Source: a phage
DNA: 64,000 bases
Sequence record: PZ386947.1
Direction: 5' to 3' (one strand)
Part shown: piece by piece, positions 1,204 to 58,763 of the stretch
Layout of the letters: every line of letters starts with the position of its first letter
Numbering within the stretch: the stretch's first letter is position 1
The notes under the pieces: model-generated
Told to the model about the DNA's origin: nothing
Database searches by the model: none
Seen by the model: only the letters and a program-made list of their open reading frames with translations
Position numbers and translations under genes: made by a program

Positions 1204-1243
1204 AATATTTTCCTCAGTAAGGGGCCGAAGCCCCTGTTTTATT

Positions 1244-1609: not shown

Positions 1610-1677
1610 TTTTATTCTCCGAGATGTTTAATTGCGGTACAGATATATAATATCATATCCTGTACCAAAGTAAACAA

Positions 1678-2010
1678 TTATTTTACTACTTTCCAATGCT
1701 TCATGTCAAGTTTACCAACTTTTTTCATCTTCTCAATTAAGCGTTCGGCACGTTGGCGAGCTGTAACATAATACCATTCACCTAATTCATTTTGTTCAAT
1801 TTTTCCAACGATTACTGTATTCAATTCATAAATCCAACCAGTAAAGAAATTATGAACTTGGATTGTAAAGGTGAAATCTGTTCCCATACCTTCTGTTGTT
1901 TCTACTTCAATAATATCACCTTCAACTGCCATTAAGAACCACATAGTTTCATCATATTTACCATTGAAGCATTTAGTTTTAACTGTAGCGTTCAGATTAA
2001 TCGTTTTCAT
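1678..2010 (-). CDS. hypothetical early protein
   Basis: 110 aa ORF in minus-strand operon. Confidence 0.4.
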   Translation of the reverse strand: MKTINLNATVKTKCFNGKYDETMWFLMAVEGDIIEVETTEGMGTDFTFTIQVHNFFTGWIYELNTVIVGKIEQNELGEWYYVTARQRAERLIEKMKKVGKLDMKHWKVVK

Positions 2011-2091
2011 TTTATTCTCCTTTGTTTGTGTAAGATAATACTATCACAAAGGAACCGTACTGTAAACAACTTTGTGCAATCTTTGGAAAAT

Positions 2092-2117
2092 AAAAAAAGG
2101 ACTCCCGAAGGAGTCCT
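2092..2117 (-). terminator. intrinsic terminator or RNA-stabilising hairpin
   Basis: Stem AGGACTCC / GGAGTCCT with CGAA loop, U-run on the minus strand; identical hairpin recurs at 54945-54964. Confidence 0.5.
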
Positions 2118-2121
2118 CAAC

Positions 2122-4900: not shown

Positions 4901-4962
4901 TTTGTTTTCCTCATTTGTTTTGGTAGAGCTATAATATCACAACTCTACCGTAAAGTAAACTG

Positions 4963-8227: not shown

Positions 8228-8255
8228 AAAGTCCTCATGTTATGTCAGTAAGACT

Positions 8256-8285
8256 ACTATAACACAACACGAGGGACTTGTAAAC
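8256..8285 (-). promoter_or_regulatory. early sigma70-type promoter upstream of alc
   Basis: Minus strand GTTTAC (8285-8280), about 18-nt spacer, TATAGT-like -10. Confidence 0.45.
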
Positions 8286-16652: not shown

Positions 16653-16710
16653 TTTATTCTCCTCAAGTTGATAAGGCTATAGTATCATTACTATAGCCCG
16701 TTGTAAACAA

Positions 16711-17614: not shown

Positions 17615-17711
17615 ATTGTTTTCCTCTTTAATCGTCAGCAGTATTGCCGATAGTTGTATAGTACCATAGAAGAACAGGGATGTAAACCATTTTGTGAAAA
17701 AATTTTGAAAT

Positions 17712-17734
17712 AAAAAAGGGACCTCTAGGGTCCC
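17712..17734 (-). terminator. intrinsic terminator downstream of gene 32
   Basis: Stem GGGACC / GGTCCC with 4-nt loop, followed by U6 on the minus strand, directly after gene 32 stop. Confidence 0.6.
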
Positions 17735-17757
17735 CAATTAATTAGTAATATAATCTG

Positions 17758-20009: not shown

Positions 20010-20927
20010 TCAAAATTCATTAATGCTATTAGTTAATTTAGAAAGACCCGCTTTTACAAAATATGAATAAATTTTGCCACGCGGTGGTAATTTATATGAA
20101 TTATAGTAATTCACAATGTTTGAAGCAATATTATCAGGAATATAATCAAAATCAATTAGAACTAAATTTTCTTTATAACGATTATACTCAGATTCTGAGA
20201 GAAGTACCTTAGCTTGCTCACGATCATTAGCAATAGCTTCAACGATTGAAGTTTTCATTGAAGGAGTCCGTTCACCTTCAACTCTGGTAAACCAAAAGTC
20301 AGAACGTACTTTAACTGAAGCAACGTTATCCTTTTTGTCACCCTTAAGAATTTTAGTCATACAATCAATTTCAGCAGAACCGCTTTTAATTTTAACCCAT
20401 TTCTTGTGCATCGGTGACCATTGCTTAACATTTGGATATTTGTGAAGTTGAGTAAAGTCACCGTCCGATGAAATGATTAAAATCTTATGTCCTTCTAAAG
20501 AGAACTTTTTAACAAGAACAGCAATGTGGTCATCTGCTTCATACTTATCAATATCCATAACAATGTATGGCATATAAGCTTTCAATTCATCTATAACTTT
20601 ATGACTGGATTCAAAATAACCTTCCCAGTCCCAAGTAGATTCTTCTCGTGCTTTTCCACGGTTTTTCTTATAATAATAAGCGAAATCACGACGCCAGTAT
20701 CCAGATTTCGCGTTATCAATACATAGTACAATTTTAGTGTATCCAAGCGTTTTTGCTTTTTTGACATTAAACTTAATTGAGTTCAATATCAAATGACGAA
20801 CCATTGATAAATTAATTTTTTCTTTATCTGGGAAGTTTACCAGAGCAGTTGAAAGAGCAATTTGACTAAAGTCAATAAAGCAAATTCCTTCTTTGTAATC
20901 TTCATCCAGCATCATTTCTAAATCCAT
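20010..20927 (-). CDS. rnh: RNase H (5-prime to 3-prime exonuclease / flap endonuclease)
   Basis: Trimmed to ATG at 20927 (MDLEMMLDEDYKEG...), 305 aa as in T4 RNase H. Confidence 0.85.
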   Translation of the reverse strand: MDLEMMLDEDYKEGICFIDFSQIALSTALVNFPDKEKINLSMVRHLILNSIKFNVKKAKTLGYTKIVLCIDNAKSGYWRRDFAYYYKKNRGKAREESTWDWEGYFESSHKVIDELKAYMPYIVMDIDKYEADDHIAVLVKKFSLEGHKILIISSDGDFTQLHKYPNVKQWSPMHKKWVKIKSGSAEIDCMTKILKGDKKDNVASVKVRSDFWFTRVEGERTPSMKTSIVEAIANDREQAKVLLSESEYNRYKENLVLIDFDYIPDNIASNIVNYYNSYKLPPRGKIYSYFVKAGLSKLTNSINEF

Positions 20928-20989
20928 ATGAACCTCGTTCAATTAGTGAGATTTCTATTATATACTATCTAAATCTTAAAGTAAACAGG

Positions 20990-20997
20990 TATAAATA
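20990..20997 (+). promoter_or_regulatory. late promoter (TATAAATA) for gene 34
   Basis: Exact TATAAATA 35 nt upstream of gene 34 ATG; GGAG Shine-Dalgarno follows. Confidence 0.6.
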
Positions 20998-21031: not shown

Positions 21032-24000
21032 ATGGCCGAGATTAAAAGAAAGTTCAGAGCAGAAGATGGTCTGGACGCAGGTGGCGATAAAATAATCAAC
21101 GTAGCTTTAGCTGATCGTACCGTAGGAACTGACGGTGTTAACGTTGATTACTTAATTCAAGAAAACACAGTTCAGCAATATGATCCAACTCGTGGATATT
21201 TAAAAGATTTTGTAATCATTTATAATAATCGTTTTTGGGCAGCAACGGATAATATTCCAAAACCTGCTGGAAATTTTAATAGAATTCGTTGGAAAGCATT
21301 ACGTACTGATGCCGTATATACAACCGTATCATCTGGACCATATCAATTAAAATCCGGAGAAGCAATTTCAGTAGATACATCAGTTGGCAATGACATTGAG
21401 TTTACTTTACCACCTTCTCCGCTTGATGGAGAAACCGTAATAATTCAAGATATTGGTGGAAAACCTGGCATAAATCAGGTTAAAATAAATTCTTCAAATC
21501 AGAGTATTGTCAATTTTAGAGGTGAACAGGTACGTTCAGTTTTAATGACTCATCCAAAGTCACAGATGGTATTCATTTTTAATAACCGTTTGTGGCAAAT
21601 GTATATTGCTGATTATAGCAGAGAAGCTGCAATTGTTACTCCATCGACTGCATATCAAGCACAATCTAATGATTTTATCGTACGTAGATTTACTTCTGCC
21701 GCACCGATTAATGTTAAACTTCCAAGATTTGCCAATCATGGAGATATCATTAATTTCGTTGATTTAGATAAATTAAATCCACTTTATCATACAATTGTTA
21801 CGACATATGATGAAACAACGTCAGTGCAAGAAGTTGGAACTCATTCCATTGAAGGCCGTACATCGATTGACGGTTTCTTGATGTTTGATGATAATGAGAA
21901 ATTGTGGAGATTGTTTGACGGGGATAGTAAAGCACGTTTACGCATTATAACGACTAATTCAAACATTCGTCCAAATGAAGAAGTTATGGTATTTGGTGCG
22001 AATAATGGAACAACTCAAACAATTGAGCTTCAGCTTCCGACTGATATTTCTGTTGGTGATACTGTTAAAATTTCCATGAATTACATGAGAAAAGGACAAA
22101 CAGTTAAAATCAAAGCTGCCGGTGAAGATAAAATTGCTTCTTCAGTTCAATTGCTGCAATTCCCAAAACGTTCAGAATATCCGCCTGAAGCTGAATGGGT
22201 AACAGTTCAAGAATTAGTTTTTAATGGTGAAACTAATTATGTACCAGTTTTGCAACTTGCTTATATAGAAGATTCTGATGGAAAATACTGGGTTGTACAG
22301 CAAAACGTTCCAACAGTTGAAAGAGTCGATTCTTTAAATAATTCTACTAGAGCAAGATTAGGCGTAATTGCTTTAGCTACACAAGCTCAAGCAAATGCTG
22401 ATTTAGAAAATTCTCCGCAAAAAGAATTGGCAATTACTCCAGAAACGTTAGCTAATCGTACTGCTACTGAAACTCGCAGAGGTATTGCAAGAATAGCAAC
22501 TACTGCTCAAGTAAATCAGAACACCACATTCTCTTTTGCAGATGACCTTATCATCACTCCTAAAAAGCTGAATGAAAGAACTGCTACAGAAACTCGTAGA
22601 GGTGTCGCTGAAATTGCTACGCAGCAGGAAACTAATACAGGTACTGATGATACTACAATCATCACTCCTAAAAAGCTTCAAGCTCGTCAAGGTTCTGAAT
22701 CATTATCTGGTATTGTAACTTTTGTATCTACCGCAGGAGCTACTCCAGCTTCTAGTCGTGAATTAAATGGTACGAATGTTTATAATAAAAACACTAATAA
22801 TTTAGTTGTTTCACCTAAAGCTTTGGATCAGTATAAAGCTACTCCAACGCAACAAGGCGCAGTAATTTTAGCAGATGAAAGTGAAGTAATTGCTGGACAA
22901 AGCCAAGAAGGATGGGCAAATGCGGTTGTAACGCCAGAAACGTTACATAAAAAGACATCAACTGATGCAAGAATTGGTTTAATTGAAATTGCTACGCAAA
23001 GTGAAGTTAATACAGGAACTGATTATACTCGCGCAGTCACTCCTAAAACTTTAAATGACCGTAAAGCAACTGAAAGTTTAAGTGGTATAGCTGAAATTGC
23101 TACACAGGTTGAATTCGACGCAGGCGTCGACGATACTCGTATCTCTACACCATTAAAAATTAAAACCAGATTTAATAGTACTGATCGTACTTCTGTTGTT
23201 GCTCTATCTGGATTAGTTGAATCAGGAACTCTCTGGGACCATTATACCCTTAATATTCTTGAAGCAAATGAGACACAGCGTGGTACACTTCGTGTAGCTA
23301 CACAAGTTGAAGCTGCTGCAGGAACATTAGATAATGTTTTAATAACTCCTAAAAAGCTTTTAGGTACTAAATCTACTGAAGCACAGGAAGGTGTCATTAA
23401 AGTTGCAACTCAGTCTGAAACTGTGGCTGGAACGTCAGCAAATACTGCTGTATCTCCAAAAAATTTAAAATGGATTGTGCAGAGTGAACCTACTTGGGCA
23501 GCTACTACTGCAATAAGAGGTTTTGTTAAAACTTCATCTGGTTCAATTACATTCGTTGGTAATGATACGGTAGGTTCAACACAGCCATTAGAATCATATG
23601 AGAAAAATGGTTATGCAGTATCACCATATGAATTAAATCGCGTATTAGCAAATTATTTGCCATTAAAAGCAAAAGCTGTAGATAGTAATTTATTAGATGG
23701 TCTAGATTCGCTCCAGTTCATTCGTAGGGACATTGCACAAACAGTTAATGGTTCACTAACCTTAACCCAACAAACGAATCTGAGTGCCCCTCTTGTATCA
23801 TCTAGTACTGCTACATTCGGTGGATCAGTTTCAGCAAATAGTACATTAACTATTTCTAATACTGGAACGGCAACTCGTCTGATTTTTGAGAAAGGACCTC
23901 AAACTGGAACAAACCCAGCTCAAACGATGACAGTCAGAGTGTGGGGAAATCAATTTAGTGGGGAATCAGACACAACACGTTCTACCGTATTTGAAGTTAG

Positions 24001-24901
24001 TGATGAAACGTCTAGTCATTTTTATTCTCAGCGTAATAAAGCTGGAAATATAACATTTAATATCAACGGTACAGTAACACCGATAAATGTTAATGCTTCA
24101 GGAACATTGAATGCAAATGGTGTAGCAACATTTGGTAATTCAGTCACTGCAACTGGTGAAATTATTTCTCGAAGCGCAAATGCTTTCCGTGCTATTAGCG
24201 GAAATTATGGTTTCATTGTTCGCAATGACGGGTCAGTAACGAATTTTATGCTTACTGCATCGGGTGATCAGACTGGCGGATTTAATGGATTGCGTCCTTT
24301 AGCTATTAATAATGCATCTGGCCAAGTAACGATTGGTGAAAGCTTAATCATTGCAAAAGGTGCTACTATAAGTTCGGGTGGTTTGACTGTTAACTCGAGA
24401 ATTCGTTCTCAGGGTACTAAAACCTCTGATTTATATACCCGTGCGCCAACATCTGATACAGTAGGATTCTGGTCAATCGATATTAATGATTCAGCCACTT
24501 ATAACCAGTTTCCGGGTTATTTTAAAATGGTTGAAAAAACTAATGAAGTGACTGGACTTCCATACTTAGAACGTGGTGAAGAAGTTAAATCTCCTGGTAC
24601 ATTGACTCAGTTTGGTAACACACTTGATTCACTTTACCAAGATTGGATTACTTATCCAACGACCCCAGAAGCACGTACCACTCGCTGGACGCGTACATGG
24701 CAGAAAACTAAAAATTCTTGGTCAAGTTTTGTTCAGGTATTTGATGGAGGTAACCCTCCTCAACCTTCGGATATAGGAGCAATCCCATCTGATAATGGAA
24801 TAATAGGTAATCTTACCATTCGTGATTTCTTACGAATTGGTAATGTTCGCATTATTCCTGACCCAGTGAATAAAACTGTTAAATTTGAGTGGATTGAATA
24901 A
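21032..24901 (+). CDS. 34: long tail fiber proximal subunit gp34
   Basis: 1289 aa, identical in length to T4 gp34; N-terminus MAEIKRKFRAEDGLDAGGDKI... Confidence 0.95.
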   Translation: MAEIKRKFRAEDGLDAGGDKIINVALADRTVGTDGVNVDYLIQENTVQQYDPTRGYLKDFVIIYNNRFWAATDNIPKPAGNFNRIRWKALRTDAVYTTVSSGPYQLKSGEAISVDTSVGNDIEFTLPPSPLDGETVIIQDIGGKPGINQVKINSSNQSIVNFRGEQVRSVLMTHPKSQMVFIFNNRLWQMYIADYSREAAIVTPSTAYQAQSNDFIVRRFTSAAPINVKLPRFANHGDIINFVDLDKLNPLYHTIVTTYDETTSVQEVGTHSIEGRTSIDGFLMFDDNEKLWRLFDGDSKARLRIITTNSNIRPNEEVMVFGANNGTTQTIELQLPTDISVGDTVKISMNYMRKGQTVKIKAAGEDKIASSVQLLQFPKRSEYPPEAEWVTVQELVFNGETNYVPVLQLAYIEDSDGKYWVVQQNVPTVERVDSLNNSTRARLGVIALATQAQANADLENSPQKELAITPETLANRTATETRRGIARIATTAQVNQNTTFSFADDLIITPKKLNERTATETRRGVAEIATQQETNTGTDDTTIITPKKLQARQGSESLSGIVTFVSTAGATPASSRELNGTNVYNKNTNNLVVSPKALDQYKATPTQQGAVILADESEVIAGQSQEGWANAVVTPETLHKKTSTDARIGLIEIATQSEVNTGTDYTRAVTPKTLNDRKATESLSGIAEIATQVEFDAGVDDTRISTPLKIKTRFNSTDRTSVVALSGLVESGTLWDHYTLNILEANETQRGTLRVATQVEAAAGTLDNVLITPKKLLGTKSTEAQEGVIKVATQSETVAGTSANTAVSPKNLKWIVQSEPTWAATTAIRGFVKTSSGSITFVGNDTVGSTQPLESYEKNGYAVSPYELNRVLANYLPLKAKAVDSNLLDGLDSLQFIRRDIAQTVNGSLTLTQQTNLSAPLVSSSTATFGGSVSANSTLTISNTGTATRLIFEKGPQTGTNPAQTMTVRVWGNQFSGESDTTRSTVFEVSDETSSHFYSQRNKAGNITFNINGTVTPINVNASGTLNANGVATFGNSVTATGEIISRSANAFRAISGNYGFIVRNDGSVTNFMLTASGDQTGGFNGLRPLAINNASGQVTIGESLIIAKGATISSGGLTVNSRIRSQGTKTSDLYTRAPTSDTVGFWSIDINDSATYNQFPGYFKMVEKTNEVTGLPYLERGEEVKSPGTLTQFGNTLDSLYQDWITYPTTPEARTTRWTRTWQKTKNSWSSFVQVFDGGNPPQPSDIGAIPSDNGIIGNLTIRDFLRIGNVRIIPDPVNKTVKFEWIE
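22430..23475 (+). repeat. internal tandem sequence repeats within gene 34 (fibrous shaft)
   Basis: Repeated ~40-aa units of form (I)TPK(K)L..R.ATE..RG.A.IAT..E.N.GTDD seen at least six times in the translation. Confidence 0.6.
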
Positions 24902-24909
24902 GAGGTATT

Positions 24910-26025
24910 ATGGAAAAATTTATGGCAGAGTTTGGACAAGGATATGTCCAAACGCCATTTTTATCGGAAAGCAATTCAGTAAGATATAAAATAAGCATAG
25001 CGGGTTCTTGCCCGCTTTCTACTGCGGGGCCATATGTTAAATTTCAGGATAATCCCGTTGGAAATCAAACATTTAGTGCAGGTCTTCATTTAAGAGTTTT
25101 TGACCCTTCTACGGGAGCATTAGTTGATAGCAAGTCATATGCTTTTTCTGCTTCAAACAATACAACATCTGCCGCTTTTGTCAGTTTCATGAATTCTTTG
25201 TCAAACAATAGACTTGTTGCTATATTAACTAGCGGAAAGGTTAATTTTCCTCCTGAAGTGGTATCTTGGTTAAGGGGAGCAGGAACTTCAGTTTTTCCAT
25301 CAGATTCAGTATTGTCAAGATTTGACGTATCATATGCTGCTTTTTATACTTCTTCTAAAAGAGCTATTGCATTAGAGCATGTTAAACTAAGTAATAGAAA
25401 AAGCACAGATGATTATCAAACTATTTTAGATGTTGTATTTGATAGTTTAGAAGACGTCGGAGCGACAGGATTTCCAAAAAGAACTTATGAAAGTGTAGAG
25501 CAATTCATGTCAGCAGTTGGTGGAACTAATAACGAAATTGCGCGATTGCCAACTTCAGCTGCTATAAGTAAACTTTCTGACTATAATTTAATTCCTGGTG
25601 ATGTTCTTTATCTTAAAGCACAGTTATATGCTGATGCTGATTTACTTGATCTTGGAACTACAAACATATCCATTCGTTTTTATGATGCATCAAATGGATA
25701 TATTTCCTCGACCCAAGCTGAGTTTACTGGGCAAGCTGGGTCTTGGGAATTAAAAGAAGACTATGTAGTTGTTCCTGAAAATGCAGTAGGATTTACGATA
25801 TATGCACAAAGAACTGCCCAAGCAGGTCAAGGCGGCATGAGAAATTTAAGCTTTTCTGAAGTATCAAGAAATGGCGGAATTTCAAAACCTGCTGAATTTG
25901 GTGTCAATGGTATTCGTGTTAATTATATCGGTGAATCCTCTTTACCTCCAGATATAATGGTACTTCCTACACAGGCATCGTCTAAAACTGGTAAAGTGTT
26001 TGGACAGGAATTTAGAGAAGTTTAA
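24910..26025 (+). CDS. 35: long tail fiber hinge connector gp35
   Basis: 371 aa (T4 gp35 is 372), immediately after gene 34. Confidence 0.85.
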   Translation: MEKFMAEFGQGYVQTPFLSESNSVRYKISIAGSCPLSTAGPYVKFQDNPVGNQTFSAGLHLRVFDPSTGALVDSKSYAFSASNNTTSAAFVSFMNSLSNNRLVAILTSGKVNFPPEVVSWLRGAGTSVFPSDSVLSRFDVSYAAFYTSSKRAIALEHVKLSNRKSTDDYQTILDVVFDSLEDVGATGFPKRTYESVEQFMSAVGGTNNEIARLPTSAAISKLSDYNLIPGDVLYLKAQLYADADLLDLGTTNISIRFYDASNGYISSTQAEFTGQAGSWELKEDYVVVPENAVGFTIYAQRTAQAGQGGMRNLSFSEVSRNGGISKPAEFGVNGIRVNYIGESSLPPDIMVLPTQASSKTGKVFGQEFREV

Positions 26026-26030
26026 ACTGA

Positions 26031-26054
26031 GGGAGCCTTCAGGTTCCTTTTTTC
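26031..26054 (+). terminator. intrinsic terminator or attenuator after gene 35
   Basis: Stem GGAGCC / GGTTCC with TTCA loop, followed by T7 run. Confidence 0.5.
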
Positions 26055-26056
26055 TT

Positions 26057-26064
26057 TATAAATA
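26057..26064 (+). promoter_or_regulatory. late promoter (TATAAATA) for gene 36
   Basis: Exact TATAAATA 24 nt upstream of gene 36 ATG. Confidence 0.55.
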
Positions 26065-26087
26065 ATATTAAAATAAAGGGGCATACA

Positions 26088-26738
26088 ATGGCTGATTTAA
26101 AAGTAGGTTCAACTGTGGGTGGATCTGTCATTTGGCATCAAGGAAATTTTCCATTGAATTCAGCCGGTGACGATGTACTCTACAAATCATTTAAAATATA
26201 TTCAGAATATAATAAACCACAGGCAGCTGATAATGATTTCGTTTCTAAATCTACTGGTGGTACTTACACAGGCCCAGTTACTATTAATTATGGTGTAAAT
26301 AGTTATCTTCAATTAAGTAATAATGAAACCCCCATCCGAATTCGTTCTGGTGGCGGCACTGGCAATACTCTTGTAGTTGGTGGCTCTTCTGGCGGTATTA
26401 GTTTTAGACCAGCAGGTAGTGAAATCACTACTGGACAAATTACTATTACGCCAGAAGGTTTGACAACATTTACCAAAGCTGTAAAGGCTCCATCTGTAAC
26501 TGTTACATCTACTCCTTCCGCAGCATCTGATGCTACTCGTAAAGATTATGTTGATGGAGCAATAAATACTGTTACAGCAAATGCAAACTCTAGGGTATTA
26601 CGCTCTGGAGACACTATGACAGGAAATTTAACTGCGCCAAACCTTTTTTCACAGAATCCTGCATCTCAACCTTCACACGTTCCACGATTTGACCAAATCG
26701 TAATTAAGGATTCTGTTCAAGATTTCGGCTATTATTAA
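26088..26738 (+). CDS. 36: long tail fiber distal connector gp36
   Basis: 216 aa, position between 35 and 37. Confidence 0.8.
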
Positions 26739-26746
26739 GAGGACTT

Positions 26747-29692
26747 ATGGCTACTTTAAAACAAATACAATTTAAAAGAAGCAAAACTGCAGGTCAACGT
26801 CCTGCTGCTTCAGTATTAGCCGAAGGTGAATTGGCTATAAACTTAAAAGATAAAACAATTTTCACAAAAGATGACTCAGGTAGTGTTATAGAATTAGGTT
26901 TAAAATATGGAGGAACTATAAATGGGTCTTTAGAGGTTACAGAAAATATAACTGGAACTTTAATTGGAAATTCTAGCACAGCTACTAAATTGCAAACACC
27001 TAGGAAAATTAATGGTATATCTTTTGATGGGTCAAAGGACATTACCTTAACTCCATCTGACATAAATGTCAATAGCACAACATTTATAAAAAATAATGGC
27101 GAATTACCTACTGATGCTAATTTAGATACGTATGGGCCCATTGAAGAATATCTTGGTGTTTGGTCGAAATCTACTTCAACAAATGCGCAACCAGCAAATA
27201 AATTCCCAGAAAAAAATGCCGTAGGTGTACTAGAAGTGTTTGTGGCCGGCCAATTTGCTGGCACTCAGCGTTATACTGTAAGATCTGGTAACGTCTATAC
27301 TCGTTCCTTATCTGCTAAATGGAATGGCGTCGATGGTCCATGGGGTGTGTGGCGTAATGTTCAAGCGTCAACTCGTCCACTTTCACAAACGATTGACCTT
27401 GATAGCTTGGGAGAATTAGAACATTGTGGCTTATGGCGAAACAGTTCAAGCGCAATCGCATCATTTGATCGCCATTATCCAGAAGAAGGATCAGCCGCAC
27501 AAGGATTTTTAGAAATATTTGAAGGTGGTTTATACACGAGAACTCAGCGTTATACTACCCGCATGGGTATGGTTTATACTCGTTGTCTCGCTGCTGCATG
27601 GGATGCTAGTGCACCTAAGTGGGAGGAATGGAAGCAGGTTGGTCATGGCACACCAGCGACTTTCTATGATGGTGACCTTAATGATTTTAAAACTCCTGGG
27701 TTATATAATATTTTAGGCACCGATGCCGTTATTAACTGCCCTACAGGTGAAGGTTTGCCGCCTGTTATTGTTGGTTTGCTGGAAGTTAAACAGCGTGCTT
27801 CTGGTGGTGCTATTTTCCAAAAATTTACTACTGCCGGAACAGGCGCAACTACTCGCGGACGTATTTTTGAGCGTGCATATACTGGTGGTGCGTGGGGTGC
27901 ATGGAACGAAGTATATACATCTTACTCTCTGCCAATTACTTTGGGTATGGGTGGTATTAAAGCTCAATTAGCGGAGTTAGATTGGCAAACCTTTGATTTT
28001 GTTCCTGGTAGTATGTTTAGCGTTCCTTTGAACAAAATAAAGAACATGCCAGCAAATATGGATTGGGGGACGATTGACGGAAACTTGGTTATGTTTTCCG
28101 TTGGTCCTAGCGAACACACTGGCACAGGGCGTACTGTTCAGGTTTGGCGCGGTACTGTATCCCAGACAAACTACCGTTATTTCGTTGTTCGTATCGCTGG
28201 TAATCCAGGAAGTAGGACTAATACTTGTCGCCGTGTTGTTCTTGAAGACGGATCACATACTTGGACTGCTCAACAAAACTTTAGGGGATTGCTGAATATC
28301 ACTGCTGCTGTTAATCTTGGTGCTAATCAGAAAATTTCACTTGCTCCAGGAGCATATATTCAAGCCCCTGCTAGCGGTTCTGGTTCTAATACTTACGCAA
28401 ATCAGAATACTACCATTGCGCCATTATATCAGGCTATTGACAATTCAAATAAAAACCAGTTTGCGCCAATTGTTAAACAGAAAAATACTGTAAGTAATAT
28501 CACCTTTGCCACTGGTATGGCTATAGGTACATCCGAATATAAGATCATTGCTCAGGGTGATTTATCCGCTGATGGAACAGCAGATGGGTTAAAACAGTGG
28601 ACTTTCATGCCGTCAGGTTATTTTAAATCTCCAGGGCGTGTATATGTCGGTGGTGCGTTCCTTAATACAGATGGTAATATTGCCGGTTCAATCTGGAAGA
28701 AATATAACAATGCGACAAATTTAGATGCTGCCTTGAATACTCGCGTAGGTAAAGGCGGTGATACGATGACAGGTCGGTTAACAATCAATACACCTAATGA
28801 TTCTATTGTATTATCAACGACTGCTAGTAATTCTTTGCATATTCGTGGTGACATAGACGGGACTGGTAACTGGTATATTGGTAAGGGTGGTGCTGATAAT
28901 TCGCTAGCATTTTATAGCTATGCTTCTCAGGCGGCAGTACATATCACAAACAATGGTGAGATTGCGTTAAACCCGCAAAATACCACAATGGTTAACGTTA
29001 ACCGTGACCGTGTACACATTAACGGTTCTGGATGGATTGCTAGACAACCGGGTGATTGGGGCAACCAATGGCAAGTAGAAGCTCCATTATTCGTTGATCA
29101 TGGTTATGTTTCACAGGATTGTTATTATCCTATTCTTAAAGCAAGAAGCGTTATAACCAATCAAGGATATAGCACCGCTGTTGACTTTGGTATGCGTCGT
29201 ATTCCATCACAGTGGGGGCAAGCAATCATTCGTGTCGGATCCACGGAGGCTTCTCCTGATGCTGGACACCCACAAGCTGTGTTTGAATTCCATCATGATG
29301 GATTCTTTTATACACCAGGAAATGGTAGCTTTAGCGATGTGTATATTCGTTCTGACTCCCGTCTCAAGATTAATAAAGAAGAATTAGAATATGGAGCGGT
29401 CGAAAAAGTTTGCCGACTGAAAGTTTATATTTACGATAAAGTTAAGTCTATTAAAGACCGTAGTGTTATTAAACGTGAAGTTGGTATTATTGCTCAGGAC
29501 CTTGAAAAGGAATTACCGGAAGCTGTATCTAAAGTTGAAGTTGATGGATCTGATGTTCTGACAATTTCTAACTCTGCTGTGAATGCTCTTTTAATTAAGG
29601 CTATTCAGGAAATGAGTGAAGAAATTAAAGAATTGAAAACGCCTCTCTTTACTAAAATTGCTCGCAAAATTAGTAAATATTTTAAATTCTAA
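26747..29692 (+). CDS. 37: long tail fiber distal subunit gp37
   Basis: 981 aa; N-terminus [22 protein letters not shown] typical of gp37; shorter than T4 gp37, consistent with a T2-type gp37/gp38 arrangement. Confidence 0.9.
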
Positions 29693-29698
29693 CAACAA

Positions 29699-29716
29699 GG
29701 GGGAAATGCCCCCTTT
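29699..29716 (+). promoter_or_regulatory. intergenic hairpin between genes 37 and 38
   Basis: GGGGG-AAATG-CCCCC stem-loop plus TTT, directly upstream of GGAG Shine-Dalgarno of gene 38. Confidence 0.45.
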
Positions 29717-29728
29717 GGAGTATAAATT

Positions 29729-30508: not shown

Positions 30509-30538
30509 TGTGAATAAATACCCTTAAAAGGAGGGTCT

Positions 30539-31468: not shown

Positions 31469-31629
31469 TAACTATACCACTCAATTAGTTGACTTTATTA
31501 TAATATCATCAGACGCTTGATTTGTAAACTGGTCTGTGTTATTTTCTTCAAAAATTTTTTCTACGAATTCCTTGAACGACTCGCGTTCCTGAGCTACATT
31601 ATGCTCGATTACTTTTTCAAGATTATGAC

Positions 31630-33926: not shown

Positions 33927-34031
33927 TTTAATCTCCGTTTCAGTTCATTTATTTGATAGGTCTATAGTATCATGTTTAAAGCAGAAGTAAACACTTTTTT
34001 GCACTCTTTTTCAAGAGCTCTAATAAAGTAC

Positions 34032-34259
34032 TTACTTAATGTTCAGATTACGAACTTCGATTTCGTCTTCATGGGCAAAATCAAACTGTTTGAATTCTGT
34101 GTCACCTTTAAATTTAAAAATCATTGTGAAGAAAGTCAGAACACCAGGTTTTTCTTCACGAACTCCACAGATATCATATTCAATACCATCTACAACCAGT
34201 TTGTTAGCAGTCAGAGCATTTTTAGCTTTAACGATTTCGTTTTCGATTTTAAATTTCAT
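34032..34259 (-). CDS. hypothetical protein
   Basis: 75 aa ORF with GGAGATACAAAA Shine-Dalgarno; early promoter GTTTAC...TGGTACTATAC at about 34300-34340 upstream. Confidence 0.4.
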   Translation of the reverse strand: MKFKIENEIVKAKNALTANKLVVDGIEYDICGVREEKPGVLTFFTMIFKFKGDTEFKQFDFAHEDEIEVRNLNIK

Positions 34260-34363
34260 TTTTTGTATCTCCGGGTTGTTTGTTTCAGTTCATTTATTTG
34301 ATAGTTGTATAGTACCACAGTATGCTTTGGTTGTAAACCGTTTTGTGAAAAAATTTTTGAAAT

Positions 34364-34389
34364 AAAAAAGGGAGAGCCGAGGCTCTCCC
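34364..34389 (-). terminator. intrinsic terminator
   Basis: Stem GGGAGAGCC / GGCTCTCCC followed by U6 on the minus strand. Confidence 0.6.
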
Positions 34390-34394
34390 TAAAA

Positions 34395-36172: not shown

Positions 36173-36253
36173 TCACTGGCGTCCGAAGACGCCTTTAGTT
36201 TTAAGATTATTACGATAGAACTGCATCACGTGTTCGTTGTGGAAATTACTCAT
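36173..36253 (-). CDS. stp: Stp peptide (activator of host PrrC anticodon nuclease / anti-restriction)
   Basis: Hand-translated 26 aa [26 protein letters not shown], which matches the T4 Stp peptide as I recall it; ATG overlaps ndd stop (TAATG). Confidence 0.75.
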
Positions 36254-37419: not shown

Positions 37420-37662
37420 TTTCTGTTCCTCCGTAGTTGATAGGGTAATAGTACCACGGAAGAACAGTCTTGTAAACAACTTTTTTAAAAATATTCGTAA
37501 TAAATGTGAATACCAACTACTACCGCTGAAACTTGCACAACCCACCACGCACAAGCAATAAGTACAGAATTCAAAATTTTCATAATAACCTCATCACAAA
37601 AGTAAATGTTAAACAAATTACTGGAATACTAATTAACCAAACAAAACACCACCATAATGAAC

Positions 37663-37926: not shown

Positions 37927-37998
37927 TTTTACTCCTCCGTAGCTGATAGTTGTATTACCACGGTCCTTGTGGTATGTAAACCATTTTGTGAAATTTTT

Positions 37999-38556: not shown

Positions 38557-38818
38557 TTAGACTTTCCTTTTTACCACTGAGATAGGCGTTATATACTTTA
38601 AGAGTGCCATAATAAATTCGGTCATTTTCATCTAAAGACTCGCGGTCAAGTTCATCGAGCTCTTTTTTATCCATGACTATAACATCATTACAGTAAAGAA
38701 ACCCAAGTTTTTCGTGACCAAACTCAAATTTATTACAGTACACAATATTAGCGTGATGATTTCCGTGCAGTTTAATCTCTTTTATGTCGGAATCACCGAT
38801 ATTCATACAATAAATCAT
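38489..38818 (-). CDS. hypothetical acidic protein (denB.1-like)
   Basis: 109 aa ORF whose 3-prime 68 nt overlap the denB 5-prime end. Confidence 0.35.
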   Translation of the reverse strand: MIYCMNIGDSDIKEIKLHGNHHANIVYCNKFEFGHEKLGFLYCNDVIVMDKKELDELDRESLDENDRIYYGTLKVYNAYLSGKKESLNAENESGFTETISDSDIYPIEQ

Positions 38819-38830
38819 AATTTTTCCTTA

Positions 38831-38852
38831 AAACAAAAGGGCCGAAGCCCTT
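38831..38852 (-). terminator. intrinsic terminator or attenuator hairpin
   Basis: Stem AAGGGC / GCCCTT with UUCG-type loop on the minus strand, then U-rich tract; same hairpin sequence recurs at 39064-39079. Confidence 0.5.
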
Positions 38853-38854
38853 AT

Positions 38855-39049: not shown

Positions 39050-39063
39050 AATTTTCCTTAGTT

Positions 39064-39079
39064 AAGGGCCGAAGCCCTT
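39064..39079 (-). promoter_or_regulatory. hairpin overlapping rIIB stop codon
   Basis: AAGGGC-CGAA-GCCCTT stem-loop, second copy of the 38837-38852 element. Confidence 0.4.
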
Positions 39080-40016
39080 ATTTAAATTGTTCAGTAACGT
39101 CTTCAACTACTTCGTATTGGCAGGTACGCATTTTAGCATCGTTGTAATCAATCGGAATTGATACTACATCACGCGGATGTACTTTAACTTTTACGACTCG
39201 GCTGGTTGAACTGCCAAAGTGACGAATATAAGATTTAGAACACACATGCAGACCACGAGAACAAGTTTGTGTATCATCGTCATTCACACGAGTACGTGGC
39301 ATTTTAACTACTTTACCCGGACTGTTATCAAAGGTGTTTGAGTGACAGTCAAAGTAATTGCTGCGAACTACTTTCCAAGCATAGAAGTAACCATCTTCTG
39401 TAATTTCAATATCGTTTGCTACCAAGAAATCAAAGAGTCGAGATACCGCTTTTTGGCTTGGGTTTTCCAGCAGATTTTCCAAGAACGGAAAATAAAATTC
39501 AAAGTTTTCGCCTTTTTCCATCGAGTCAAGAATACGATCAACCAAACCAGACCGCAATTCAATATTTTGATAGAACAAGCTTCCACCTTCAATTCGAACA
39601 TCGCCGGAAATATATTTTTCAACAGCGCGACGAACATTAATTTTTTGTGCCGCTTCTTCCAACTTATCCGCTACAAGCAGATTAAGAATTTCCTGGAAGT
39701 TTGAATGAGTATTAGGAGTTGCATTATAAGTTACACCGTCAACAGTAATTGAAATGAATTTTTTAGATGCATTCCAAATAATGTCAGATTTAGCAACTGG
39801 AGCAATAACTGCATCGCTATTAACTTTAACTGTAATATCACCGCTAATAGTAACTTTAGAACGTTTAGCTTCTTCAGCATTTTTCAAAACACGACGGATT
39901 GTGTCAACCGATACATCCTTCCAATAAGCTAATTCCTGCTGAGTGTAATTACCACTTGAATACAGTTTAACAATTTCAGCTTGTTCGTTTTTGGTCAGGC
40001 ATTTAATATTGTACAT
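39078..40016 (-). CDS. rIIB: rIIB membrane-associated lysis-inhibition protein
   Basis: 312 aa, identical in length to T4 rIIB; immediately downstream of rIIA. Confidence 0.9.
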   Translation of the reverse strand: MYNIKCLTKNEQAEIVKLYSSGNYTQQELAYWKDVSVDTIRRVLKNAEEAKRSKVTISGDITVKVNSDAVIAPVAKSDIIWNASKKFISITVDGVTYNATPNTHSNFQEILNLLVADKLEEAAQKINVRRAVEKYISGDVRIEGGSLFYQNIELRSGLVDRILDSMEKGENFEFYFPFLENLLENPSQKAVSRLFDFLVANDIEITEDGYFYAWKVVRSNYFDCHSNTFDNSPGKVVKMPRTRVNDDDTQTCSRGLHVCSKSYIRHFGSSTSRVVKVKVHPRDVVSIPIDYNDAKMRTCQYEVVEDVTEQFK

Positions 40017-42444: not shown

Positions 42445-42474
42445 ATTATACCACATCCTTGTGGTAAAGTAAAC
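42445..42474 (-). promoter_or_regulatory. early sigma70-type promoter for rIIA.1 / rIIA
   Basis: Minus strand GTTTAC (42474-42469), 18-nt spacer, perfect TATAAT (42450-42445). Confidence 0.55.
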
Positions 42475-44294: not shown

Positions 44295-44360
44295 TTATCC
44301 TCGTTTGGTTTCGGGAATATTATACTCCAGTAATCATAAAGCTAAAGGCCCGAAGGCCTT

Positions 44361-44630
44361 TTATTTAAAACGGATAGTCGAATCCTTGAAGAATAGACCA
44401 GAACATACTGTTCCTTCTACTTTCTGCCCAGTAGGTCCAACAGCACGAAATCCAGTGTGTTGGAAATCATTTTCAGAGCAACCGAACCAGTTATATCCAG
44501 TGATTTCAATATTAGTAAAACCGCTTGAAGATAAAACTTTGGTTGCATTATCAGCATCAGTACATCCTACTAAAGATACTGCTAATACTAATGCTGCAAT
44601 AGAACGATTAATATATTTCATAATTTTCAC
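44361..44630 (-). CDS. small secreted lipoprotein
   Basis: 89 aa; signal peptide with lipobox LVGC (MKIMKYINRSIAALVLAVSLVGC...). Confidence 0.5.
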   Translation of the reverse strand: MKIMKYINRSIAALVLAVSLVGCTDADNATKVLSSSGFTNIEITGYNWFGCSENDFQHTGFRAVGPTGQKVEGTVCSGLFFKDSTIRFK

Positions 44631-46109: not shown

Positions 46110-46194
46110 GTTGTTTTCTGTATCAGTAGTTGATATTGATATAGTACCATAATCAACTACTGATGTATATAGTTTTATGAAAAAATTTTAAACT

Positions 46195-46686: not shown

Positions 46687-46730
46687 AGTTATCTCTCACT
46701 TGTTAAAAAGATTTTATACTCCACGGGACC

Positions 46731-46760
46731 ATTATACTCTGGTCCCAAGAGTTTGTAAAC
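46731..46760 (-). promoter_or_regulatory. early sigma70-type promoter for motB
   Basis: Minus strand GTTTAC (46760-46755), 18-nt spacer, TATAAT (46736-46731); -10 lies in the loop of inverted repeat GGGACC/GGTCCC. Confidence 0.5.
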
Positions 46761-47304: not shown

Positions 47305-47844
47305 TTATCTCATTTCAATAAAATCTATGAGTTCAGCATGCGATTTGCGGAACATTACTTGGTGCCCACCAATGATAACTTCATCTTCAGGAACTTCGTA
47401 TACAGCGAGATAAAATCCTTTAGAAGATAATTCTTCCCGCTCTTCTCGTGTGAACCATCTCATCATATCATATTCACTAGCGAAAGCAAAATGATAAAGA
47501 GCTATAAACCACCCTGGAATATGATATTCTACTCCAACATAATCTTTCTTGAACTTAGTATTAATTACTATATTAGCGTTTTTAACTAATAGTTTATCTT
47601 CGTGTGGTAAAGGAATTCTTTTATTATTATCGCTATGATGCATAAAATTAGGTCTGTCATAACCTACGTGTAATAGCCACTCTTCGCTCCATGAATCTAT
47701 TATACTCCTGTACGGCGTTATTTGAACACAAAGATTTCGACGTATTGTTATAGCATCTTCATAATCAAGAATACTAAACGATGATTCAACACGATAAATT
47801 TTCATTTTATTATCCTCAGTAGCTATGGTGTTATAATACCACAA
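47305..47844 (-). CDS. hypothetical protein (dexA-downstream)
   Basis: 179 aa ORF; early promoter GTTTAC...TGGTATTAT at about 47830-47865 upstream. Confidence 0.4.
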   Translation of the reverse strand: MWYYNTIATEDNKMKIYRVESSFSILDYEDAITIRRNLCVQITPYRSIIDSWSEEWLLHVGYDRPNFMHHSDNNKRIPLPHEDKLLVKNANIVINTKFKKDYVGVEYHIPGWFIALYHFAFASEYDMMRWFTREEREELSSKGFYLAVYEVPEDEVIIGGHQVMFRKSHAELIDFIEMR

Positions 47845-47868
47845 CTAACCGAGGAAGTAAACAACTTT

Positions 47869-51429: not shown

Positions 51430-51510
51430 ATTTTTCTCACATCTTACGGACGGTTAACTACTTATACTATAACATTTTTACCTTAACTTGTAAACAACTT
51501 TATGTAAAAA

Positions 51511-52801: not shown

Positions 52802-52831
52802 ATCATATCATCGTTAGAAAGGAAAGTAAAC
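52802..52831 (-). promoter_or_regulatory. early sigma70-type promoter for modB
   Basis: Minus strand GTTTAC (52831-52826), 18-nt spacer, TATGAT -10. Confidence 0.45.
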
Positions 52832-54874: not shown

Positions 54875-54939
54875 AGTGCTCTCCTCTATAAGATAATTCT
54901 ATTATACCATACTCATTTTGATATGTAAACCATTTAAAT

Positions 54940-54964
54940 GAAAAAGGACTCCCGAAGGAGTCCT
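54940..54964 (-). terminator. intrinsic terminator downstream of soc
   Basis: Stem AGGACTCC / GGAGTCCT with CGAA loop plus U-run on the minus strand; identical to hairpin at 2098-2117. Confidence 0.55.
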
Positions 54965-54969
54965 TGAAT

Positions 54970-58230: not shown

Positions 58231-58260
58231 ATAGTATCTCAATTTCCAACAAAAGTAAAC
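58231..58260 (-). promoter_or_regulatory. early sigma70-type promoter for sp
   Basis: Minus strand GTTTAC (58260-58255), 18-nt spacer, TACTAT -10. Confidence 0.45.
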
Positions 58261-58704: not shown

Positions 58705-58733
58705 AACAATCTCCTCATTTAACCAACAAGACT

Positions 58734-58763
58734 ACTATACCATAGTCTTGTCAGCTTGTAAAC
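58734..58763 (-). promoter_or_regulatory. early sigma70-type promoter for dmd
   Basis: Minus strand GTTTAC (58763-58758), 18-nt spacer, TATAGT -10. Confidence 0.45.

Follow-up and report, generated by a model that had tools for sequence, protein, structure and literature searches.

The repeated blocks of 25-70 bp in this phage DNA are very probably standard T4-like transcription signals, in which terminator hairpins with a UUCG loop are followed by strong early promoters. The window, by which we mean the whole stretch of 64,000 nucleotides that was analysed, appears from its sequence to come from a Tequatrovirus, a relative of T4. It is about 99.8% identical overall to Shigella phage CM8 (100% across the first 6 kb), its gene order is collinear with T4 30.3...rIIB/rIIA...42, and it spans the early-gene region, which is transcribed from the minus strand. 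Our analysis covered the sequence anatomy of the repeats, their strand and position bias, their conservation in relatives, predicted folding and the positions of crossovers; for actual initiation, actual termination and the mechanism of recombination we rely on established T4 biology and the literature. T4 early promoters, UUCG terminators and PeSL-mediated shuffling have all been published already, and knowledge of the biology is unchanged.

The original prediction, made from the letters of the window, had described three repeated elements and proposed that they act both in transcription punctuation and as sites of recombination. The repeats are present where they had been placed, within 1 bp, and chance would not be expected to produce any of them. 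They represent just the closest-matching members of two wider families, one of 21 promoters and one of 8 UUCG-loop hairpins (Table 1). The proposed punctuation role is strongly supported, as the hairpins come after stop codons, some of them with U-tracts, and the blocks fit the T4 early-promoter consensus on the minus strand. In the GenBank records of relatives (fPS-65, G2133, T4), the orthologous positions carry terminator or early-promoter annotations. An Rfam scan of the whole window at the gathering threshold returned no matches. Relative to the CM8 record, from which these features are missing, the predicted gain in annotation is 21 early promoters, 5 terminators and several intercistronic hairpins.

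Table 1. Predicted transcription signals and associated small genes in the window (positions in window coordinates).
Feature	Position	Strand	Details
Intercistronic C(UUCG)G hairpin, 30.7|30.6 junction	1220..1235	-	AGGGGC-UUCG-GCCCCU; no U-tract
Early promoter of gene 30.7	1647..1675	-	GTTTACT, 16-bp spacer, TATTAT; -10 bracketed by inverted repeat GGTACAG...CTGTACC
Gene 30.8 (110 aa, phrog_1507, unknown function)	1678..2010	-	Small ORF flanked by early promoters 2067 and 1675
Early promoter of gene 30.8	2038..2067	-	GTTTACA 2061-2067, 17-bp spacer, TAGTAT 2038-2043, ATG 2010; PWM 42.3; same in T4 except 2 spacer bases
Intrinsic terminator after gene 30.9	2087..2118	-	First headline copy; GAGGACUCC-UUCG-GGAGUCCUU + U7 tract; -15.8 kcal/mol, z -3.5; orthologue in phage G2133 annotated 'terminator' (ARNOLD)
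Early promoter, cd.3|cd.2 junction	4931..4960	-	Orthologue named 'early promoter Pe133295' in T4 GenBank note
Early promoter of alc	8256..8285	-	PWM; spacer complementary to alc SD
Early promoter of frd.1	16679..16708	-	PWM; 10-bp perfect inverted repeat brackets -10
Early promoter of frd.3 (second repeat block)	17658..17687	-	UP region TTTTTTATTTCAAAATTTTTTCACAAAATG upstream; PWM 61.3, top hit; T4 orthologue
Gene 32 terminator	17708..17735	-	GGGGACC-CUAGA-GGUCCCU + U6 tract; -11.9 kcal/mol; kept in T4 and T6, loop inverted in T2
Early-type promoter upstream of rnh	20957..20986	-	PWM
Early-type promoter upstream of asiA	31500..31529	-	PWM
Second early promoter, directly upstream of motA	33964..33992	-	GTTTACT, 16 bp, TACTAT
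Extra 75-aa ORF (phrog_10955, unknown function)	34032..34259	-	Between two early promoters, each followed by exact repeat CTATCAAATAAATGAACTGAAAC
Early promoter, paralogue of 17687 cassette	34309..34338	-	PWM 60.8; 'predicted early promoter' in fPS-65; predicted to drive motA in T4, extra ORF 34032-34259 here
motA.1 terminator	34360..34390	-	AGGGAGAGC-CUCG-GCUCUCCCU + U6 tract; -18.6 kcal/mol, z -5.1; annotated 'terminator' in fPS-65
Intercistronic C(UUCG)G hairpin directly 5' of an SD	36178..36193	-	GGCGUC-UUCG-GACGCC; no U-tract
Early promoter, spacer pairs with downstream SD	37448..37477	-	PWM + folding
Early promoter without terminator ('partial copy')	37952..37981	-	GTTTACA, 17 bp, TAATAC; ATG 37926; PWM 33.8
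Terminator-like C(UUCG)G hairpin after denB.1	38828..38852	-	AAGGGC-UUCG-GCCCUU + UUUUGUUUU; found in T4 with small changes
C(UUCG)G hairpin, rIIB stop codon to denB.1 SD	39063..39080	-	-10.9 kcal/mol; no U-tract
Early promoter upstream of rIIA.1	42445..42474	-	PWM
C(UUCG)G hairpin	44344..44361	-	AAAGGCC-UUCG-GGCCUUU
Early promoter with variant -35 ATATACA	46141..46170	-	PWM
Early promoter upstream of motB	46731..46760	-	PWM; GGGACC...GGTCCC brackets -10
Early promoter upstream of motB.2	47833..47862	-	PWM; -23.7 kcal/mol hairpin pairs spacer with SD
Early promoter, srd|modA junction	51466..51495	-	PWM
Early promoter, modA.2|modB junction	52802..52831	-	PWM
Early promoter of mrh.2	54901..54930	-	GTTTACA, 17 bp, TGGTATAAT; ATG 54874
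Intrinsic terminator after soc	54936..54965	-	Second headline copy; AAGGACUCC-UUCG-GGAGUCCUU + U-tract; -15.1 kcal/mol, z -4.6; same hairpin at same locus in T4 and T6
Early promoter upstream of sp	58231..58260	-	PWM
Early promoter upstream of dmd	58734..58763	-	PWM; 15-bp hairpin brackets -10

Generic scans, which are too permissive for an AT-rich phage, showed no enrichment either for sigma-70 promoters (76 versus 78.3 in shuffles) or for terminators (11 versus 10.6). The window stood out from shuffled sequence only under the T4-specific consensus and stricter hairpin criteria, and we used a T4-specific PWM, built from the sites, in place of the sigma-70 scan and the stricter hairpin criteria to call terminators. 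With the PWM, 19 minus-strand hits were obtained, against no more than one on the plus strand and 0-1 in 20 shuffles; two further sites with a 16-bp spacer bring the total to 21 promoters, every one of them on the minus strand. In the window, T4, T2 and T6 alike, the early strand carries 17-20 instances of the strict motif GTTTACW-N17-TAnnnT and the opposite strand none; in the window itself there are 17 strict matches, the remainder of the 21 being variants. The derived consensus is ...A.a.Aat.GTTTACa...N...atGgTAttaT, and the information that the PWM holds upstream of the -35 element (aa.a....t.cA.a.Aat) corresponds to an A/T-rich UP region at about -40 to -60. The distance from -35 to ATG is 55-79 nt overall and 55-61 nt at 14 of the 21 sites.

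This consensus agrees with the UP/-35/TGn/-10 architecture described for T4 early promoters (PMC2988021) and matches the PeSL promoter of the T4/PST pair, TTTACW-N17-TAYWAT (PMC4122927). The window promoters share with those of T4 the -35 element GTTTAC(A/T), the 17-bp spacer, the extended -10 element TGnTAnnAT and the A/T-rich UP region, as well as their orientation with the early genes and their orthologous positions (Pe133295, for example, corresponds to window position 4960). Nothing substantive differs: spacers and leaders are a few bases off those of T4, and the window has one extra promoter (33992) that accompanies an extra ORF absent from T4. On the strength of orthology to T4 and of the annotation in relatives, we predict immediate-early, chloramphenicol-resistant initiation at these sites by the unmodified host polymerase.

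The second repeated element had been described as a near-identical block with an attached GC hairpin. Its two copies, at 17649-17720 and 34300-34371, are indeed alike (79% ungapped identity over 72 nt), but the attached GC hairpins differ. The partial copy reported with them was recovered at 37971-38003, with 85% identity over 33 nt, and weaker relatives lie at 2029, 37439 and 46132. When the 17687 and 34338 cassettes, which are paralogues, were compared for concerted evolution, a single T/C site agreed in four of five genomes, as expected from chance and linkage. We dropped this concordance as evidence because it is inseparable from those two effects.

Among the 20 hairpins with a four-base loop on the minus strand of the window, eight have a TTCG loop, and seven of these eight are closed by a C-G pair. 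Predicted stabilities of the hairpins range from -10 to -19 kcal/mol, each hairpin comes after a stop codon, and in 4-5 cases a U-tract follows on the 3' side, on the minus strand only. A GC stem with a short loop and a 3' U-tract was found at 2097-2118, 17717-17735, 34369-34390, 54944-54965 and 38837-38852. The hairpins at 39063-39080, 1220-1235 and 36178-36193 have no U-tract and do not qualify as intrinsic terminators; that at 39063-39080 is therefore an intercistronic hairpin, and that at 1220-1235 is likewise not a terminator. The third predicted repeat, AAGGGCCGAAGCCCTT, occurs at 38837-38857 and 39064-39084 as an exact match of 21 nt that includes an ATTTA tail, with diverged copies at 1220 and 44345. 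Hairpins with a C(UUCG)G tetraloop in T4 intercistronic regions and terminators were reportedly described by Tuerk et al. in 1988 (PNAS). Those of the window are alike in the UUCG loop, the C-G closing pair and their place after stop codons or between cistrons, and we found no difference.

The headline hairpin, AAAAAGGACTCCCGAAGGAGTCCT, had been predicted to occur in identical form at two distant loci, and it does so exactly, at 2094-2117 and 54941-54964; the second location stood as given, and the first starts 1 bp later than the predicted 2093. No copy of this 24-mer turned up in 100 dinucleotide-preserving shuffles, not even when as many as 3 mismatches were tolerated. A stem, a UUCG loop and a T-run together leave only about 7 free positions, and the exact 23-mer hairpin followed by T5 is found in 47 IMG/VR stretches that represent about 26 distinct viral contexts. 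At least 20 of these contexts are unrelated to this phage, and a stop codon precedes the hairpin in every one. Control stems were about as common in IMG/VR (31 stretches for an arm-swapped stem and 10 for an arbitrary stem), and the exact stem GGACUCC recurs across many unrelated phages. Given the viral contexts and the few free positions, the exact identity of the two hairpins carries less weight as evidence than a 24-mer match might suggest. It does not imply recombination, and convergence on a generic terminator design accounts for it better than would an exchange between the loci, which beyond the hairpin have little sequence in common. Two exact hairpin pairs in 64 kb are nevertheless more than independent convergence easily predicts (we estimate a few percent per pair), and therefore some copying between the loci may have occurred.

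The composite order of stem-loop, AT-rich stretch, -35/-10, SD and ATG within about 100-130 bp is that of the PeSL cassettes of T4-type phages (Arbiol, Comeau and Krisch 2010, PMC2839356; Comeau, Arbiol and Krisch 2014, PMC4122927), a model that includes the T4/PST pair. Four cassettes in the window show it, and the likeness extends to their intergenic place, to the small ORFs of unknown function alongside, to the fit of the window promoters to the T4/PST consensus and to crossovers between -10 and ATG, as mapped for the RB49 mini-circles. The window differs from the PeSL model in that a stem-loop lies directly upstream of only 4 of the 21 promoters (2067, 17687, 34338 and 54930), the other 17 being without one, and in that breakpoints are not significantly enriched beyond their intergenic location in the three-genome comparison.

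In the mechanism that we propose, a GC-rich RNA hairpin, often with the very stable C(UUCG)G tetraloop, would form after the stop codon and, together with the following U-tract, would halt E. coli RNA polymerase without Rho. At 14-31 bp beyond it, the A/T-rich UP region, the -35 element, the 17-bp spacer and the extended -10 element would constitute a T4 early promoter, served by the unmodified host sigma-70 polymerase right after infection, with the Shine-Dalgarno sequence and ATG of the next gene about 57 nt past the -35. Terminator, promoter and ribosome-binding site would together form a self-contained expression cassette, the published PeSL. Copies would be alike mainly because of one strong functional consensus, the hairpins also converging on a generic stem-UUCG-stem-U design. 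The 20-45 bp that they share would be sufficient for the efficient T4 recombination system, and small non-essential ORFs between two cassettes would therefore occasionally be gained or lost by in-register crossover, with recombination as a by-product. For phage engineering, such cassettes may serve as natural sites, insulated in transcription, at which small genes can be inserted.

Recombination and modular exchange at the repeats, the other part of the original prediction, are supported as a possibility and fit the PeSL model, but the crossovers that we mapped lie in promoter, leader or SD sequence, outside the headline hairpin. The repeats are neither absent from relatives nor remote from breakpoints: they occur in T4, T2 and T6, the three genomes against which breakpoints were mapped, and several breakpoints fall inside them. 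Gene 30.8 is missing from T2 (window 1620-2006), with a crossover within the shared SD-ATG sequence GGAGAATAAAAATG, and its locus is at least 80% covered in 442 of 553 matching phage records. ORF 34032-34259, a putative cassette-type insertion, is absent from T4, T2 and T6, with a crossover inside the repeated -10/leader, and about 135 of 713 matching phage records contain it. Both are presence/absence polymorphisms over hundreds of records. Further breakpoints lie inside the footprint of the frd.1 promoter (16663 in T4/T6 and 16721 in T2), in those of promoters 37952..37981 (a T4/T2 replacement boundary at 37938) and 46731..46760 (the boundary of a 1-kb deletion in T2 at 46771), 35 bp from promoter 46141..46170 (a T4/T6 deletion boundary) and 14 bp from the footprint of promoter 4931..4960 (a 514-bp insertion in T6).

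Of the 48 breakpoints in total, 11 come within 50 bp of a promoter footprint, where 3.3 would be expected at random (p=0.0004). Counted by junction, breakpoints occur at 10 of 20 promoter-bearing junctions and at 24 of 85 others, a difference that is not significant by Fisher test (p=0.056), nor is that among gaps of at least 40 bp (10 of 19 versus 8 of 19, p=0.37). Recombination at the cassettes appears to be real but modest, and, as the enrichment by junction is not significant, its role is therefore either minor or indistinguishable from that of indels falling between genes.

These observations bear on the view that the repeats are first and foremost mobile regulatory cassettes (PeSLs), similar through copy-and-paste or gene conversion together with the small ORFs that they flank, and selected for a linker role. 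The in-register crossovers that delimit the two polymorphic ORFs are in its favour, as are chimeric cassettes (L102) in which one promoter's spacer is combined with another's leader, a 40-nt exact repeat of -10, leader and SD at two distant promoters of T6, a mosaic boundary exactly at the soc hairpin in three IMG/VR loci (L047, L049 and L052), and the experimental demonstration of PeSL-recombination mini-circles in RB49 and phi1 (PMC2839356). We nonetheless consider it unlikely as the primary explanation: enrichment per junction is not significant, the 17683 and 54941 cassettes have no breakpoint in T4, T2 or T6, and the headline hairpin is generic in unrelated phages, its two loci sharing little else. 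It is very improbable that the hairpins act instead as DNA, in the form of cruciforms or of binding sites for a recombination or replication protein. Such a role would accord with T4 deletion endpoints, about half of 13 of which involve GGGC, sometimes paired with GCCC (Mosig 1998, as relayed by Arbiol et al., PMC2839356), since the third hairpin family here is GGGC-TTCG-GCCC, and loop inversions among relatives reveal mutational activity of the palindromes at the DNA level. The hairpins are, however, strictly oriented with transcription, with a U-tract on the minus strand only and right after stop codons; the UUCG loop is an RNA-stability feature, and the 38837 and 39064 hairpins have no breakpoint in T4, T2 or T6.

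Labels in public records could also suggest that the repeats are attachment (att) sites or the ends of an integrated element, as the GenBank records of T2 and T6 (AP018813, AP018814) mark 20-nt and 40-nt exact repeats as attL/attR. The T2 orthologue of promoter 46141..46170 is annotated as attL, and the T6 orthologue of promoter 37952..37981 is mis-annotated as attR. These repeats turn out to be the -10/leader/SD parts of early promoters before ordinary T-even genes, the labels stem from automated prophage-style annotation, and the phage is a strictly lytic Tequatrovirus with no integrase in the annotated region, and we rejected this reading as having almost no chance of being correct. Chance or low-complexity matches in an AT-rich genome can be dismissed with near certainty as well. 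The shared UP regions are A/T runs, and the generic scans were not enriched over shuffles, but chance is refuted by the absence of the 24-mer from shuffles, the absolute strand bias and the strict-motif counts in T4, T2 and T6, where sites are conserved at orthologous positions.

A separate observation concerns the folding of the promoter regions. About half of the early promoters are predicted to lie within an RNA hairpin of which the promoter spacer forms the 5' arm, and in a subset the SD lies in the 3' arm (alc, motB.2, 30.8, frd.3 and the genes starting at 37419 and 52775); at 30.8, the spacer is predicted to pair with the SD in read-through RNA. We tentatively suggest, while rather doubting it, that RNA reading through from upstream would hide the ribosome-binding site and that RNA from the cassette's own promoter, starting inside the loop, would be translatable, which would amount to functional insulation. 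Over all 21 promoters, the mean P(unpaired) of the SD in read-through RNA was 0.46, not significantly different from 0.44 with shuffled spacers, and any SD-hiding effect appears to be confined to a subset of promoters.

A similar arrangement is known from hairpins embedded in T4 late promoters, which hide the ribosome-binding site in early read-through transcripts of e, soc, 49 and I-TevI (PMC3014915). There too the promoter lies in the 5' arm or loop and the SD in the 3' arm, and only RNA from the gene's own promoter is translatable. The embedded promoter is late in those cases, whereas it is early (sigma-70) here, and the late-promoter hairpins delay expression to late times, whereas here the effect would insulate an early cassette from upstream early transcription. 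In the literature searched we found no description of an early-promoter version. This is the only item here with some potential: if functional, it would extend the autonomy of the cassettes to the level of translation, each being insulated there as well as in transcription, and would help to explain why cassettes can be shuffled safely. For alc, a search for related loci with Alc recovered close relatives only, and we collected homologues by tblastn on the phage collection and assessed pairing with RNAduplex on each sequence, using shuffled spacers as null; a MAFFT alignment of the leaders was not structure-consistent and was left out of the counting of pairs. Complementarity between the alc spacer and SD is kept, with covarying stems, in six of nine genus-level representatives (z -4.6 to -7.3).

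T4 early promoters, UUCG terminators and modular shuffling mediated by PeSLs (T4-type cassettes of a stem-loop terminator, AT-rich region, early promoter, Shine-Dalgarno (SD) sequence and ATG), including in the T4/PST pair, are already established. Noticing the repeat cassettes of the window is a correct rediscovery of known signals. Over its first 6 kb the window matches Shigella phage CM8 (MK962750, genus Tequatrovirus) at 100% identity, and many T4-like phages are ~97% identical over the same stretch. The whole 64 kb align with CM8 127218..167247 joined to 1..~23970 at 99.8% identity (84 mismatches and 18 gaps; net length change 3 bp). The differences cluster in the gp38 adhesin gene (29743-30508), the only stretch departing from CM8, which suggests that the window comes from a near relative of CM8 whose host-range determinant differs. 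The genes follow the T4 order from 30.3 via rIIB/rIIA to gene 42, and because all genes except a tail-fibre/holin block (~21032-31195) lie on the minus strand, the repeats are to be read on that strand. Gene 34 (proximal tail fibre; 22436-23358, plus strand) carries dispersed direct repeats of 30-35 nt (ACTCCnnAAAnnnT...ACTGA) spaced at multiples of ~108-120 nt, consistent with a repeated protein motif.

Every repeat listed in the original prediction is present in the window. The headline 24-mer, located after gene 30.9 and after soc, is exact at both loci, and none of 100 shuffles contains a match to it even with up to 3 mismatches. The second block belongs to a 72-nt family (17649-17720 versus 34300-34371, 79% identity) with weaker members at 2029, 37439 and 46132, and its partial copy covers 33 nt at 37971-38003. 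The third hairpin, AAGGGCCGAAGCCCTT(ATTTA), has identical copies at 38837 and 39064 and diverged ones at 1220 and 44345. On the minus strand the headline repeat comprises a stop codon, GGACUCC-UUCG-GGAGUCC and then U5-7, a predicted intrinsic terminator of textbook form whose loop is a C(UUCG)G tetraloop, and the 30.9 copy is annotated as a terminator in the G2133 record. Predicted hairpin stabilities are -10 to -19 kcal/mol, and TTCG is the loop in 8 of the window's 20 minus-strand hairpins with a four-base loop; UUCG-loop hairpins are reportedly a feature for which T4 has historically been known, from work by Tuerk and colleagues in 1988. Three of the hairpins lack a U-tract and lie between a stop codon and the following SD; these are intercistronic elements and not terminators.

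Positions of hairpins and repeat loci, with breakpoints found in T4, T2 or T6
Feature	Position	Strand	Context	Breakpoint in T4, T2 or T6
Headline hairpin	2094-2117	minus	after gene 30.9; exact repeat	yes, in promoter part of cassette, not hairpin
Headline hairpin	54941-54964	minus	after soc; exact repeat	none; mosaic boundary in IMG/VR contigs
Gene 32 hairpin	17717-17735	minus	after gene 32; then U6	
motA.1 hairpin	34369-34390	minus	after motA.1; then U6	
denB.1 hairpin	38837-38852	minus	after denB.1; then UUUUGUUUU	none
Intercistronic hairpins	39063-39080, 1220-1235, 36178-36193	minus	between stop codon and next SD	none (39064 locus)
-10-bracketing hairpins	58721-58756, 47810-47858, 46724-46747, 46118-46165, 37425-37472, 16674-16699, 8233-8281, 4922-4949, 2015-2055, 1640-1672	minus	z <= -3	
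Repeat locus	17683			none
Repeat locus	34333			yes
Repeat locus	37975			yes

Two terminators have conserved stems but loops that are inverted between relatives. In the motA.1 terminator, the window and T6 have GCC-TC-GGC where T4 and T2 have GCC-GA-GGC; in the gene 32 terminator, the window and T4 have ACC-CTAGA-GGT where T2 has ACC-TCTAG-GGT (loci in the relatives: T4 L002 37700-37725 and T2 L005 ~20900-20990). The pattern resembles template-switch ('flip') mutation of palindromes.

The long repeat blocks, judged by their sequence, are promoters. Scanning with a PWM seeded with GTTTAC[AT]-N17-TAnnnT gives 19 minus-strand sites, whereas the plus strand has one weak site at most and shuffled sequences have 0-1; two more sites with a 16-bp spacer bring the total to 21. 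Their four-part consensus combines an A/T-rich upstream region, GTTTACa, a 17-bp spacer and TGgTAnnAT, matching both the UP/-35/TGn/-10 description of T4 early promoters (PMC2988021) and the PeSL consensus TTTACW-N17-TAYWAT in T4/PST (PMC4122927). In the window, T4, T2 and T6 the strict motif is present in 17-20 copies on the early strand and 0 on the other. In 14 of the 21 promoters, 55-61 nt separate the -35 G from the ATG (66, 73-74 or 79 nt in the others), a tight clustering that implies a fixed-geometry promoter-leader-RBS module. Existing records agree independently with the promoter and terminator reading: besides the G2133 annotation, the site orthologous to 4960 is named 'early promoter Pe133295' in the T4 record, and the fPS-65 orthologue of 34309-34390 is annotated 'predicted early promoter' and 'terminator'. 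A terminator lies 14-31 bp upstream of four promoters (2067, 17687, 34338 and 54930, named by their -35-side coordinate); these units, which share the composite structure published as PeSLs, are exactly the cassettes that had been noticed originally.

We considered whether the matching hairpin copies reflect common function or copying between loci. The repeat elements are kept at orthologous positions in relatives; the GGACTCC hairpin is the same at both loci in T4 and T6, and occurs once in T2, where soc is replaced by a different gene. IMG/VR contains the exact 23-mer (hairpin plus T5) in 47 stretches representing ~26 distinct flanking contexts, most without similarity to the window and all with a stop codon directly preceding the hairpin, while an arm-swapped control hairpin is found in 31 stretches and an arbitrary GC-matched stem in 10. 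Given these many unrelated contexts and the similar behavior of the controls, a stem-UUCG-stem-U run is a generic, convergently recurring design with an effective information content of ~7 stem positions rather than 24. Outside the hairpin and T-run the headline loci have little in common (the hairpin-to-promoter distance is 30 versus 14 nt), and recombination between direct repeats 52.8 kb apart would yield only a lethal deletion. We therefore attribute the identity of the headline copies to shared function. By a rough estimate, finding two exact pairs among the eight UUCG hairpins somewhat exceeds what pure convergence predicts, so that occasional copying between hairpin loci may also occur.

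In another T4-like lineage (IMG/VR L016, L025, L028, L029 and L051; contigs of 175-177 kb) the GGACTCC-TTCG hairpin is present at least twice per genome. Some copies are followed by TGCTT...TAGAAT, resembling a MotA-box middle promoter, and would form a cassette of terminator and middle promoter (PmSL) like that reported for phage nt-1.

The repeats had also been proposed as potential sites of recombination and modular exchange. Alignment of the window with homologous regions of three full relatives, T4, T2 and T6, gave 48 distinct indel/replacement boundaries outside the tail-fibre block. With random positions as the null, 6 boundaries lie inside promoter footprints (1.4 expected, p=0.004) and 11 lie at most 50 bp from one (3.3 expected, p=0.0004). 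This enrichment mostly vanishes with gene junctions as the null: a boundary is present at 10/20 junctions with a promoter versus 24/85 without (Fisher p=0.056) and, among intergenic gaps of at least 40 bp, at 10/19 with versus 8/19 without (p=0.37). Many other boundaries correspond to introns or homing-endonuclease genes (td and nrdB introns, mobE, segF, segG and the mobA/gene 60 insertion). Of the six loci originally singled out, 34333, 37975 and the 2094 cassette have breakpoints in T4, T2 or T6, and 17683, 54941 and 38837/39064 have none there.

Despite the non-significant junction-level enrichment, the individual crossover cases are clean. Gene 30.8 is absent from T2 (1620-2006 missing), and the junction falls within GGAGAATAAAAATG, the SD-ATG common to the 30.8 and 30.7 cassettes. 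A 75-aa ORF (34032-34259), absent from T4, T2 and T6, is flanked in the window by two early promoters with the exact repeat CTATCAAATAAATGAACTGAAAC after each, and the junction is inside the repeated -10/leader. Both genes are presence/absence polymorphisms in the phage collection (the 30.8 locus is covered in 442 of 553 matching records, and ~135 of 713 carry the ORF) and belong to PHROG families annotated 'unknown function'. More boundaries lie within the footprints of promoters 16708, 37981 and 46760. Among IMG/VR contigs, L055 has a deletion of 30.8 and 30.7 starting at the 30.8 promoter, L102 has a chimeric promoter with the spacer of one cassette and the leader of another, and in L047, L049 and L052 identity jumps from ~67% to 95% exactly at the soc hairpin. 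The crossovers relative to the window, between -10 and ATG, occupy the same positions as those mapped experimentally in RB49 mini-circles (PMC2839356).

A hairpin brackets the -10 hexamer at ten of the 21 early promoters, with MFE z-scores of -3 or lower against shuffles preserving the -10. At six promoters (52831, 47862, 37477, 17687, 8285 and 2067) the SD is within the 3' arm, and its predicted accessibility is ~0-0.2 in read-through RNA versus 0.4-1.0 in RNA from the own promoter; under this model, the former would be untranslatable and the latter translatable. SD occlusion is not significant over all 21 promoters, and SD hiding thus concerns only a subset. Substitutions in the T4, T2 and T6 hairpins are mostly G-U compatible, and one in T6 disrupts a pair. 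For alc (promoter 8285) we compared the rnlA|alc spacers of 11 phages from other genera, which together with the window yielded 9 genus-level representatives. In 6 of these 9 lineages (Tequatrovirus, Moonvirus, Gelderlandvirus, Dhakavirus and two Klebsiella phage groups) the spacer beside the -35 shows complementarity to the SD region, with duplex z-scores of -4.6 to -7.3; Mosigvirus, Lazarusvirus and Muldoonvirus lack the pairing. The stems differ by lineage, e.g. CATTTGGTTG/CAACCAAATG versus CGTTTGGTTG/CAACCAAACG, and the spacer-SD pairing covaries. A limited literature search found no description of such hairpins at early promoters; the same logic is known at the late promoters of e, soc, 49 and I-TevI (PMC3014915).

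GenBank records of the strictly lytic phages T2 (L005 38301-38320, L006 6093-6112) and T6 (L007 42590-42629, L008 24507-24546) contain attL/attR features. We rejected these labels: the features are exact repeats of 20 and 40 nt of the early-promoter -10/leader/SD, upstream of ordinary genes, and are automated mis-annotations.

Between denB.1 and denB the window contains a separate 330-bp ORF (38489-38818; denB-side interval 37999-38475). T4 and T2 have a ~195-207 bp deletion within it (38570-38772), flanked by 5-19 nt of overlap, and the annotated T4 denB therefore begins at the ATG of the upstream ORF, which suggests a fusion or an over-extended start.
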